Below are positions 10,423 to 62,233 of a stretch of DNA of 64,000 nt, piece by piece. Origin of the DNA: a virus (lineage: Duplodnaviria; Caudoviricetes). The position numbers were made by a program, and so were the translations under genes. Each line of letters begins with the position of its first letter. The stretch's first letter is position 1. The stretch is from positions 77,351 through 141,350 of the IMG/VR virus record IMGVR_UViG_3300020577_005688; one strand, given 5' to 3'. The notes below the pieces were generated by a model. It ran no database searches. It was not told the DNA's origin and saw nothing but the letters and a program-made list of their open reading frames with translations.

Positions 10423-10655
10423 GTGGGACGCAGCAACAGCCTCAGCAGGAGCCAACAGTTCCTGCTGGACTGCGTCCAAACACTCAACAACCAACAACCT
10501 TGTTGGAAGTTGCGGCTGAGGATTTGTGGAAACTGACGAATGCCCAGCTCATCGAGTTTGCTGAGATGGCGCTGGGGATTCTCATCAAGCCAGATGAAGA
10601 GCGTTCCACCATCATGAGGAAGCTCGTGAACGCAGCATCTGGGATTCGAAAGTAG
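10416..10655 (+). other. candidate programmed -1 frameshift extension (78 aa) of 9361..10422
   Basis: C-CCT-TAA can re-pair as CCC-TTA. The -1 frame is open 10380-10655 (LSGTQQQPQQEPTVPAG...AASGIRK*). A strong stem-loop lies at 10426-10477. Confidence 0.65.
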
Positions 10656-10657
10656 AG

Positions 10658-10692
10658 GAAAGGGCCTCGGTTCAATGAGGCCCTTTCTTTTT
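10658..10692 (+). terminator. intrinsic terminator between convergent modules
   Basis: GAAAGGGCCTC-8nt-GAGGCCCTTTC followed by TTTTT. Confidence 0.85.
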
Positions 10693-10948
10693 AGCTTTCA
10701 TCCTCATGACCAAAGAGCCATTTCGGAAGACCGGTGTCGTTGATGCCGCGTACGACAACCTTACGACCAGTGACAGTGTCCTGCAGAAGGATCTCAAGAG
10801 GCGTGATATCGACCACGGTCGTCGTGTGGTTCGATAGAACTGTTCTCTCCATATGCGTCAACAACTGCTGCGAATCCGCCCAGTAGATGACCAACGTGGC
10901 GAGTTTCTCCTGATTCCCAACCCCTAGCAACCGCTCCTTGATTCCCAT
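10691..10948 (-). CDS. hypothetical protein
   Basis: 85-aa ORF, last of the minus-strand operon; SD-like GGAG upstream. Confidence 0.6.
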   Translation of the reverse strand: MGIKERLLGVGNQEKLATLVIYWADSQQLLTHMERTVLSNHTTTVVDITPLEILLQDTVTGRKVVVRGINDTGLPKWLFGHEDES

Positions 10949-10999
10949 AGAAGAACTCCTTCCACAGAGCCAAAGAGCTCTCTGCGATGTCGTACGAGT

Positions 11000-55404: not shown

Positions 55405-55652
55405 AATACGAGATTGTCAGTACCGAAGTGTTCATCTACCCACTTGGATTCGACATTCATTGGGTCGCAAAGAACTGGGCAGCCCTTCCTGGGAGCCCAC
55501 TCAGGGATATGCCGGTGTCCGGCATTTTGTCGTTTCAAAAGACTCGCGACGGTTTCACGAAAGTCAATACTGAGACCATGGGCGAGGAGTTTTGTACTGC
55601 GGTCCTTACTCAGTTTCTTCGAGACTCTCTGAAAGAGAGCGAGGAAAAGTGA
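55401..55652 (+). CDS. hypothetical protein
   Basis: GTGA coupling. Confidence 0.55.
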   Translation: MKYEIVSTEVFIYPLGFDIHWVAKNWAALPGSPLRDMPVSGILSFQKTRDGFTKVNTETMGEEFCTAVLTQFLRDSLKESEEK

Positions 55653-55891
55653 AGAAACTTCTAAGTGATAAGAAGAAGGTGGAGTTCATTCGCATCTGGA
55701 GTGACTGGTTCTACGACCACTCTTCTTCTTACCGAGGAGCACTCGGAGTTCAATTGGCCTATCTTTGGCCCGCAATAATCAGAGAACACCAAATCGAAGT
55801 CTCAGAAAGGAGCGCCATCGTGAAATTGCTTCGTAAACAGAAGGTAGCTCCAGACTCCGACATTTGGGGCTACCTAGACATCGTCGGATAA
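55649..55891 (+). CDS. hypothetical protein
   Basis: GTG with SD GAGG; stop 2 nt before tRNA-Lys(TTT). Confidence 0.55.
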   Translation: MKKLLSDKKKVEFIRIWSDWFYDHSSSYRGALGVQLAYLWPAIIREHQIEVSERSAIVKLLRKQKVAPDSDIWGYLDIVG

Positions 55892-55892
55892 G

Positions 55893-55965
55893 GGATCCAT
55901 AGCTCAGTAGGTAGAGCAGCGGACTTTTAATCCGAGGGTCGTGGGTTCGAGCCCCACTGGATCCA
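55893..55965 (+). tRNA. tRNA-Lys(TTT)
   Basis: GGATCCA/TGGATCC, CT-TTT-AA. Confidence 0.93.
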
Positions 55966-55966
55966 T

Positions 55967-56694
55967 TCTCACATTGTTGGAGGACCAATGGCTTGAGATA
56001 ACCTTTTAAACGTGGCGCATCCGAAACGCTCTGGCTTGGTGTAAGCGAGCTGAAGTGGTCAGCCCTCTCAAATCAAACCATGTACCGGTGTCGATATCGA
56101 GAGACGCACAAACTCTGCAGTACTCGTCAAGGCGTGGCTGAGCGGACCGTCGACTTATCAATCGATAGGCGGGATGGCACCTGCCGAAAATCCAGGGCAA
56201 AAATTCTAAGACGAGAGAGTTGAGGAGAGAACTCGCGATTCTCAGTAGGCGAGTTGGATGTTGGCCAGCATATAATTTGACTGAAACCTTTGAGATAGAT
56301 TGACTCCAATGATCATTACACAATGCGAGGCGCTCGGGACTGTGGTGTAAGCGAGCCGTGTTGACCCACGCGGTGGGCCGACGACATACGGACAACGGGG
56401 AAGGAACAGTCGAGACTACATGTTGACCGGGATCCGCCCCTCCTCCAAAGGAGACAGGCGTGAAGGTCGGGGTGAGAGCAATCACTGCGGATAGTTTCTC
56501 CGTTTACGCACAGGGCCGACAGTCCGGGTATTTACCGGAAGTTGGCTTGGGGATGCAGAGGTCGCGTTCTGCACTGGAACGAGCATAGCAGCTCCCAACA
56601 TGAGTGGAGCTAAAGAAGTGAACATCTTTCCCTCATATCTCAGCCTATTGTACATCCATGCGTGTACACTATGTTACTGGGATATTGAGGCATC
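55967..56694 (+). ncRNA. large (~730 nt) structured non-coding RNA candidate (GOLLD/ROOL-like context)
   Basis: No + strand ORF of 60 aa or more; many helices with G-U pairs; 14-nt direct repeat TGGTGTAAGCGAGC; bounded by tRNAs. Confidence 0.6.
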
Positions 56695-56695
56695 T

Positions 56696-56766
56696 GCGGG
56701 TGTAGCTCAATGGTAGAGCCACAGCCTTCCAAGCTGAGGACGAGGGTTCGATTCCCTCTACCCGCT
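56696..56766 (+). tRNA. tRNA-Gly(TCC)
   Basis: GCGGGTG/TACCCGC, CT-TCC-AA. Confidence 0.92.
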
Positions 56767-56780
56767 CTCTCTCAAGACAC

Positions 56781-56852
56781 AATTGATTCGTCTAGTGGTT
56801 AGGATACTGCCCCTTGAAGGCAGTGACGTTGGTTCGAATCCAACATCGAGAG
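56781..56852 (+). pseudogene. degenerate tRNA-Gln(TTG)
   Basis: Intact D, anticodon and T arms, but C33 (loop CC-TTG-AA) and unpaired acceptor positions 1-2. Confidence 0.65.
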
Positions 56853-56854
56853 TG

Positions 56855-57003
56855 AGGCGAGAATTCTGCATCGTGAGGTGCAGACAAAGAGTACCGCATT
56901 ACTGAAGCGTGAAACCTTCTGGAAGTGCGGAGGCAAGGGGGCCATGAGTACACGAACATCTTCGTGTATTGAATCCCCTAGGTCTCCAAGGTACTCTTTG
57001 CCT
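56855..57003 (+). ncRNA. ~150-nt multi-stem structured RNA candidate
   Basis: Perfect 11-bp CAAAGAGTACC/GGTACTCTTTG enclosing two hairpins; GTGA-capped hairpin 5' of it. Confidence 0.5.
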
Positions 57004-62092: not shown

Positions 62093-62233
62093 TGATTTAC
62101 CCGGCCGAAGAGTCCCTACACGCAAACTATCTAGGTTCGAGTCCTAGTTCTCGCGAAAGCGAAAATAGCCTAAGGGTAAGGCATCTGACTCTTAATCAGA
62201 CCAAACTTGTGGATTCCTCACTCGGGTGAATCA
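62093..62233 (+). ncRNA. Y-RNA (YrlA)-like RNA containing a circularly permuted tRNA-Lys(CTT) module
   Basis: Outer stem TGATTTACCCG/CGGGTGAATCA with GCCGAAG; inside, in order: T arm, acceptor stem capped by GAAA, D arm, anticodon arm; T-run after. Confidence 0.7.

Follow-up and report, generated by a model that had tools for sequence, protein, structure and literature searches.

The window analysed here comprises 64,000 nt (positions 77,351-141,350 of IMG/VR record IMGVR_UViG_3300020577_005688, Caudoviricetes) and represents the final 64 kb of a 141-kb linear phage contig that is ~75% complete and whose phage proteins include a DNA polymerase, a UvsX-like recombinase, a ribonucleotide reductase and a DNA ligase. 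Between 54.5 kb and the window end, 17 tRNA genes, all on the + strand, are interleaved with small + strand open reading frames (ORFs), the count rising to 18 if a degenerate tRNA recognised only by Rfam is included. Within this array, the genes for tRNA-Lys(UUU) (55893-55965; ARAGORN, sequence and 72.6 bits with the Rfam tRNA model) and tRNA-Gly(UCC) (56696-56767; ARAGORN and Rfam), both of which lack an encoded CCA, flank an ORF-free spacer that fills the gap between them exactly (55966-56695). At 730 nt this is the largest stretch of the window left uncovered when coding-strand ORFs of at least 60 aa and tRNAs are masked, followed by one of 564 nt (10423-10986), as had been stated, along with its position between the two tRNAs, in a first-pass annotation of the DNA. 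The remaining tRNA pairs of the array are 3-100 nt apart or are separated by genes. Homologous spacers occupy the same slot in relatives, and their comparison suggests, with a probability that we put at roughly 0.78, that the spacer encodes a structured non-coding RNA (ncRNA) of ~725 nt, which forms part of the tRNA operon and belongs to a class that has not been catalogued. Coordinates are window positions unless prefixed by a locus name (L002, L050 etc.), and features lie on the + strand unless stated otherwise.

Protein-guided searches with the neighbouring genes recovered the same tRNA array in a few uncultured contigs. The gene for an 80-aa protein upstream of the spacer yielded five clusters, from which three diverged alleles of the Lys(UUU)-Gly(UCC) gap were obtained, while the YpsA-like gene led to 46 loci with the RNA in L002 only, and the family of the downstream 87-aa gene was found in other contexts without the RNA. 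Allele A is that of the window and is base-for-base identical in L055, L083, L084 and L085; allele B is found in L002, a 197-kb lake phage contig with a 717-nt spacer; and allele C in L051 (711 nt), L050 and L086. Spacer lengths are 711-730 nt in L002, L051 and L055 and 1082-1085 nt in L050 and L086, where an HNH gene is inserted. Among cultured phages (BLASTN, 50,697 phage records) only the flanking tRNAs were matched. Exact-motif scans recovered the allele B contig alone from a viral contig collection, gave 27 matches in a metagenome contig collection, 26 of them due to chance, and produced 0 and 9 matches, all by chance, in a genome contig collection. As exact patterns overlook diverged relatives, this distribution is a lower bound.

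When the gap is aligned, the three alleles show about 59-70% identity, and their parts follow one common order. Segments that vary in both sequence and length are interspersed with stretches free of any change, up to 23 bases long (around 56336-56358), a pattern indicative of a structured RNA, and the insertions and deletions between alleles sit at hairpin tips. Conservation is unevenly distributed, with 70-77% identity between alleles in the 3' domain and 48-69% in the 5' half. Since a comparison of the window with L002 shows only 58% identity at third codon positions in the flanking genes, the 3' domain is likely to be under purifying selection.

The best-supported part of the predicted structure is this 3' domain (56324-56631), for which RNAalifold derived a consensus of 91 pairs, which make up 13-14 helices with several multi-helix junctions, with 95.4% of the cells paired. 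Pairs were counted on five sequences, and controls consisted of partners slid by 1-3 columns and of 500 shuffles. Both sides had changed in 20 of the 91 pairs, compared to 2-5 in the slid controls and 7.9 +/- 1.9 in the shuffles, none of which (0/500) scored as high. Most of the 3' helices are also predicted when each allele is folded alone, the pair probabilities being independent of the joint alignment, and the minimum free energy (MFE) fold of the window sequence itself recovers them. Among the best are the helix at 56360-56382 and three hairpins towards the 3' end. The first of these hairpins (helix 11, 56514-56547) carries an invariant 7-nt loop, GUAUUUA, has six of its 12 pairs compensated and reaches a pair probability of 0.76-0.95 per allele. 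The second (helix 12, 56551-56575; TGCAGAG-GUCGCG-UUCUGCA) presents a UCGCG loop, with three of nine pairs compensated and a probability of 0.71-0.83, while the third (helix 13, 56591-56612; AGCTCC/GGAGCT) is represented by four different sequences in four alleles, each of which forms a hairpin. By contrast with these constant elements, a variable extension hairpin (helices 8-10, 56419-56474) is missing in allele B (L002) and has another sequence in allele C. The stems listed in the first-pass annotation are all present in the sequence and most recur in the comparative consensus, where CCCAC/GTGGG, GCCGAC..GTTGGC, TGCAGA/TCTGCA and AGCTCC/GGAGCT each correspond to helices.

The 3' domain is followed by a terminal hairpin (56631-56690) which ends 5 nt from tRNA-Gly. 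As had been proposed for the window, it folds, and so do its counterparts in the other alleles, all differing from one another in sequence (window, CCUCAUAUCUCAG..; L050, CCCUCUACUCAU..; L002, CCCGA.. plus five U). Compensation of base pairs, the criterion applied here for a structured ncRNA, is thus found in the 3' domain and the terminal hairpin and is weaker in the 5' half; the predicted structure of the 3' ~300 nt and the terminal hairpin can be considered solid. In L002 (L002:5897-5931) the terminal hairpin is followed by the five U immediately before tRNA-Gly, a run which is absent in the other alleles, and this arrangement looks like an intrinsic terminator within the tRNA operon. In L050 and L086 an HNH gene follows the hairpin.

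The 5' half (55966-56323) gave a consensus of 70 pairs, with 92.5% paired and 13 pairs compensated versus 1-4 in slid controls, and the fold proposed for it is provisional. Sound elements within it are the conserved blocks at 55975-55991, 56034-56052, 56165-56190, 56211-56245 and 56284-56305, together with the predicted hairpins at 56168-56185 and 56227-56243. The former hairpin, GGCGGG-AUGGCA-CCUGCC, is represented in L002 by GAAGGG/CCUUUC, which amounts to two compensatory pairs, and its probability ranges from 0.08 to 1.0 among the alleles. The latter, GAGAA-CUCGCGA-UUCUC, bears a self-complementary UCGCG(A) in its loop and reads GAGAG-GUCGCGU-CUCUC in L002, where one closing A-U is replaced by G-C; it competes with other local pairings. 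The first conserved block (55975-55991) contains a small hairpin, UUGG-AGGA-CCAA (55977-55988), and is nearly invariant, leaving no covariation by which the hairpin could be tested. The long-range stem noticed in the first-pass annotation (ACTCTG..CTCGTC/GACGAG..AGAGTT, 56111-56222) encloses two inner hairpins. This stem forms part of the consensus (helices 9 and 10), with four compensated pairs between 56111-56131 and 56211-56222, and is not recovered by single-sequence folding, so that it can be regarded as probable only. The last block, a linker (AACCUUUGAGAUAGAUUGAC, 56284-56305), is a candidate for pairing with the bases that directly follow tRNA-Lys, by which the 5' half may be closed; the corresponding duplexes measure 5-7 bp per allele, of which only the 7-bp duplex of L002 exceeds chance. 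A second long-range pairing candidate overlaps this linker (56287-56291/56400-56404), reading CCUUU/GAAGG and, in L002, CCUUA/UAAGG, where the change compensates for one that breaks the nested helix 56394-56403/56495-56504; it could represent an alternative conformer or chance.

The two halves share a repeated motif, which the first-pass annotation had recognised as a 14-nt repeat and both copies of which are kept in the three diverged alleles. Copy 1 (56037-56050) reads TGGTGTAAGCGAG(C) and is kept in all alleles. Copy 2 (56343-56356) lies within a run of 23 invariant bases, its first part forming the 5' strand of the helix 56340-56349/56505-56513 and its AGCGAG lying in a junction. No further copy occurs in the 141-kb record at 0-1 mismatch. 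The possibility that the motif is complementary to a tRNA 3' end or to another site was dropped, there being no complementary copy in the 141-kb record. Each half contains one copy of TGGTGTAAGCGAG and one UCGCG hairpin loop, arranged in the same order and separated by 190-215 nt. Internal duplication of one half to give the other was also discarded, since the 3' covariance model R1 found no match in the 5' half and local alignment returned the repeated motif only.

An exhaustive search for column pairs that are complementary in all alleles further pointed to a helix that may join the halves. Its 5' strand (56046-56051) lies at the 3' end of motif copy 1 and its 3' strand at 56544-56549, and the six pairs are kept in all alleles as CGAGCU/GGCUUG (alleles A and C) or CGAGUG/CACUUG (allele B). 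Two of the pairs are compensated, making this the sole non-local helix with two, and such a long-range helix was reproduced in one of 200 column shuffles. Since it crosses the helices that close the 3' domain, it would constitute a pseudoknot joining the two halves; the changes in it stem from a single lineage and it is put forward tentatively.

Several observations weigh against a single structured RNA spanning the spacer. The folding energy is ordinary and no better than that of shuffled sequence, with z-scores of the whole-spacer MFE relative to dinucleotide shuffles of -0.16 (+ strand) and -1.04 (- strand), and of -0.55 and +0.52 for two 300-nt halves. The earlier description of the region as highly structured thus does not hold where energy is concerned. 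As single-sequence energy gives no evidence for structure, the structural claim rests on covariation and comparison; of the two findings that had been named in advance as jointly speaking against it, folding no better than shuffled sequence was observed, while an absence of covariation was not, given the compensated pairs of the 3' domain. The covariation is itself drawn from three independent alleles, so that each instance of covariation amounts to one or two events, and the consensus was scored on the same sequences from which it was derived. In the 5' half L002 is only 48% identical, which makes alignment error possible, and most of the helices there have near-zero probability in single-allele folds, with MFE folds that differ between alleles. 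Neither the loop palindromes nor the repeated motif varies, which places their pairing partners beyond covariation testing. In the collections scanned, the RNA is confined to one narrow uncultured freshwater phage lineage, again as a lower bound. Furthermore, the 3' domain has closing helices of its own (56327-56336 with 56580-56584 and 56625-56629), and the 5' half may close through the pairing of its first bases with 56291-56295.

The last two features, along with the great difference in conservation between the halves, would be expected if the spacer were a string of small modules, namely a 5' module, a 300-nt 3' module and the terminal hairpin, which are cut apart and act independently. 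In all alleles, however, the parts and their order are the same, and no module occurs alone elsewhere, the trimmed 3' covariance model R1 having returned no additional copy from the window or from ~1.2 Mb of other loci. The spacer contains neither a tRNA-like element nor a known small motif, a candidate covarying helix bridges the halves, and each half carries one copy of the motif and one UCGCG loop. Independent modules are considered unlikely for these reasons, and one RNA is clearly favoured over them.

The direction in which this RNA would be read is indicated by its base pairs. G-U pairs account for 52 of the 344 paired cells (15%), and the energy of the consensus fold is -83 kcal/mol on the + strand compared to -58 on the - strand, both of which suggest that the RNA is read in the direction of the tRNAs. 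Taken together with the covariation, the strand energies support the conserved structured ncRNA on the + strand, and the G-U strand bias, that had been predicted from the window alone. The opposite strand contains an ORF of 159 aa (56006-56485, - strand), annotated by gene callers on the allele A contigs and present in the window and the contigs with the identical allele, which raises the question of whether the spacer is instead a decayed or unrecognised protein gene, or else an element acting as DNA, for example as an origin, as a packaging site or as the target of a homing endonuclease; in L050 and L086 an HNH gene has inserted beside the RNA. The 159-aa ORF had been named at the outset as a potential objection to an ncRNA. 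It is broken in the other alleles and has no Pfam match, and was rejected as a gene. The longest stop-free stretches comprise 165 codons in the window (- strand), 80 in L002 and 77 in L051 and are found in differing places and frames; the L002 spacer has no ORF with a start codon longer than 53 aa, and no open frame is common to the alleles on either strand. The longest frames in the other alleles (53-80 codons) lie elsewhere. Pairs are, moreover, maintained by way of G-U, on the + strand only, which is of consequence for RNA and not for duplex DNA. Either origin for the spacer is hardly credible.

In a simple scan the spacer showed no sigma-70-like promoter and one weak terminator-like site (56253-56269), and promoter and terminator sites are no commoner in the region than in shuffled sequence. 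As no promoter- or terminator-like site in the spacer stands out, we infer that the RNA is transcribed as part of the tRNA precursor. The conserved sequence begins a few bases after the discriminator of tRNA-Lys, the base directly before the RNA, and release of the RNA by tRNA processing appears probable. The RNA would be co-transcribed with the tRNA array, its 5' end being generated by a cut of the RNase Z type after 55965, past the discriminator of the CCA-less tRNA-Lys, and its 3' end by RNase P cleavage before 56696 at tRNA-Gly. The hairpins near the ends (55977-55988 and 56631-56690) may then block exonucleases.

The spacer's flush fit with both tRNAs, the terminator-like hairpin and U run of L002 and the ordinary folding energy are likewise compatible with a transcribed spacer and nothing more, in which the hairpins act in cis on the processing or timing of the flanking tRNAs or on the end of transcription, and no free RNA has a function. 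Given that the other tRNAs of the array lie 3-100 nt apart or are separated by genes, 730 nt would not be needed for processing, and a processing signal requires far less than a multi-junction domain of 300 nt in which as many as 23 consecutive bases are invariant and many pairs are compensated. The U run is, moreover, missing in the other alleles. A purely cis-acting spacer is therefore judged quite improbable.

Known RNA families were sought with the models of Rfam 15, at the gathering score on the whole window and at E≤10 on the spacer in three alleles. The comparison by cmscan that the first-pass annotation had proposed, with GOLLD, ROOL, OLE, introns, RNase P and transfer-messenger RNA (tmRNA), matched no family. 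At E≤10 the spacers of the three alleles gave no match to any model, save for one chance match of 14 bits to the model of a 45-nt mycobacterial small RNA (sRNA). This includes the models for RNase P, tmRNA, group I and II introns, OLE, HEARO, raiA, drum, skipping-rope, 6S and signal recognition particle (SRP) RNA, as well as RF01998, a model of a group II intron fragment. GOLLD (RF02032, gathering score of 150 bits), for which Weinberg et al. 2009 is reportedly the source, was not matched in the window at its gathering score or, at E≤10, in the three allelic spacers, and its model matched nothing in the whole 141-kb record. Similarly, ROOL (RF03087, gathering score of 99.1 bits) was not matched in the window at its gathering score or in the spacers of the three alleles (cmscan, E≤10), and its model matched nothing in the 141-kb record, although the latter search is weak, as the control genomes lacked ROOL, and cmscan represents the real test. 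No tRNA-like fold, with a T arm and acceptor stem, was found in 55966-56695 by ARAGORN or by the Rfam tRNA model at E≤10. Resemblances to RNase P and SRP RNA that were noticed by eye were dropped for want of model support.

The setting of the spacer, its size and its pattern of a conserved 3' and a variable 5' region are as in GOLLD, and might indicate that its RNA belongs to a known family (GOLLD, ROOL, RNase P RNA, group I or II introns, or tmRNA) from which it has diverged beyond recognition by covariance models. Against this stand the failure of every Rfam model on three alleles apart from the chance sRNA match and the lack of GOLLD and ROOL hits over the 141-kb record, while an intron would require a split gene, and none flanks the spacer. 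Such an affiliation is very improbable, and of the two options raised in the first-pass annotation, a divergent member of a GOLLD- or ROOL-like class or a new class, it is the new class that the comparisons favour. The setting it had described as typical of these RNAs does apply, as the spacer lies within an array of 17-18 tRNAs on a phage contig.

Aside from the RNA itself, the locus shows signs of exchange between relatives. A 115-aa HNH-type endonuclease gene lies between the terminal hairpin and tRNA-Gly in two contigs (L050:6040-6387 and L086:1528-1875) and looks like a free-standing homing endonuclease; it is absent from L051 despite the same allele C RNA. The protein encoded upstream of the spacer in L055 (475-788) is only 74% identical to its counterpart in the window (55649-55965), yet the 730-nt spacers are identical, while in L086 (456-772) the upstream protein is identical to that of the window, yet the spacer is allele C. 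These mismatched histories of upstream protein and spacer suggest recombination breakpoints near tRNA-Lys, where the endonuclease perhaps drives recombination. Downstream of tRNA-Gly, the degenerate tRNA (56783-56849) scores 45 bits with Rfam over model positions 3-68, is missed by ARAGORN and has the anticodon loop UUG; its slot holds an intact tRNA-Gln(UUG) in L002 and a tRNA-His(GUG) in L050 and L051. Further ORF-free structured stretches occur in the same tRNA operon at 56855-57003, within which an inverted repeat was confirmed (56882-56895/56990-57003), and at 62093-62233, neither with an Rfam match at the gathering score.

The role of a single ~725-nt RNA at this locus can be outlined only speculatively. 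The shared motif, the UCGCG loops and the helix 56046-56051/56544-56549 would tie the halves together, and the conserved loops may make loop-loop contacts within the molecule or between copies, in the manner of the kissing loops of GOLLD, ROOL and OLE. The product could be a stable, trans-acting RNA scaffold, and its target might conceivably be the translation or tRNA machinery during infection. To our knowledge, very few RNAs of bacteria and phages combine a length above ~500 nt with an elaborate conserved fold, the examples being rRNAs, group II introns, GOLLD, ROOL and OLE. The large RNAs that have been studied do unusual things, such as assembling into dimers or into cages made of RNA only. 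Another class in the same niche with unrelated sequence would support the repeated evolution by phages of large RNAs linked to their tRNA sets, and the RNA would provide a new subject for structural work and for studies of the roles of large RNAs in infection. For now its value is limited by its derivation from three alleles of one narrow uncultured lineage.

Stable non-tRNA RNAs are also known from the tRNA cluster of phage T4, where species 1 and 2 (rnaC and rnaD), of ~120-140 nt, are cut from a common precursor by tRNA-processing enzymes. Both they and the spacer RNA lie within a phage tRNA cluster, the T4 RNAs being far smaller, and the two are compared here by description only. ROOL RNAs, which average 581 nt (Weinberg et al. 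2017, PMC5737381), are similar to the spacer RNA in size, in their phage and tRNA neighbourhood and in having no known protein partner, whereas the spacer RNA has no model match, another predicted architecture and longer invariant runs than described for ROOL. GOLLD and the spacer RNA are both large phage ncRNAs located beside or inside tRNA islands, with many junctions and variable hairpins. Many GOLLD RNAs exceed 800 nt, in contrast to the ~725 nt of the spacer RNA, which has no covariance-model match and is known from three alleles of one uncultured freshwater lineage only. The 3' region of GOLLD is universally conserved and its 5' region less so (bioRxiv 10.1101/2024.12.08.627333), and the identities of 70-77% and 48-69% in the two parts of the spacer follow the same pattern, by analogy rather than homology. 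At most, the RNA would thus resemble GOLLD and ROOL in size and genomic setting, and is not placed in either family.

Both GOLLD and ROOL are found near phage tRNA islands and have symmetric kissing loops with palindromic sequences (bioRxiv 10.1101/2024.12.08.627333; PMC5737381), and the subunits of GOLLD, ROOL and OLE are joined by symmetric kissing loops of this kind (bioRxiv 10.1101/2024.12.08.627333). Conserved self-complementary loops are common to GOLLD, where they serve as intermolecular kissing bridges, and the spacer RNA, for which the UCGCG loops as symmetric kissing loops can be taken as a lead only. By extension, the RNA might be a third, unrelated self-assembling giant phage RNA, in which the UCGCG loops and the 13-nt motif bridge copies into a dimer or closed cage. 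This is a long shot; if true, it would mean that RNA-only quaternary assemblies beside phage tRNA genes arose repeatedly.

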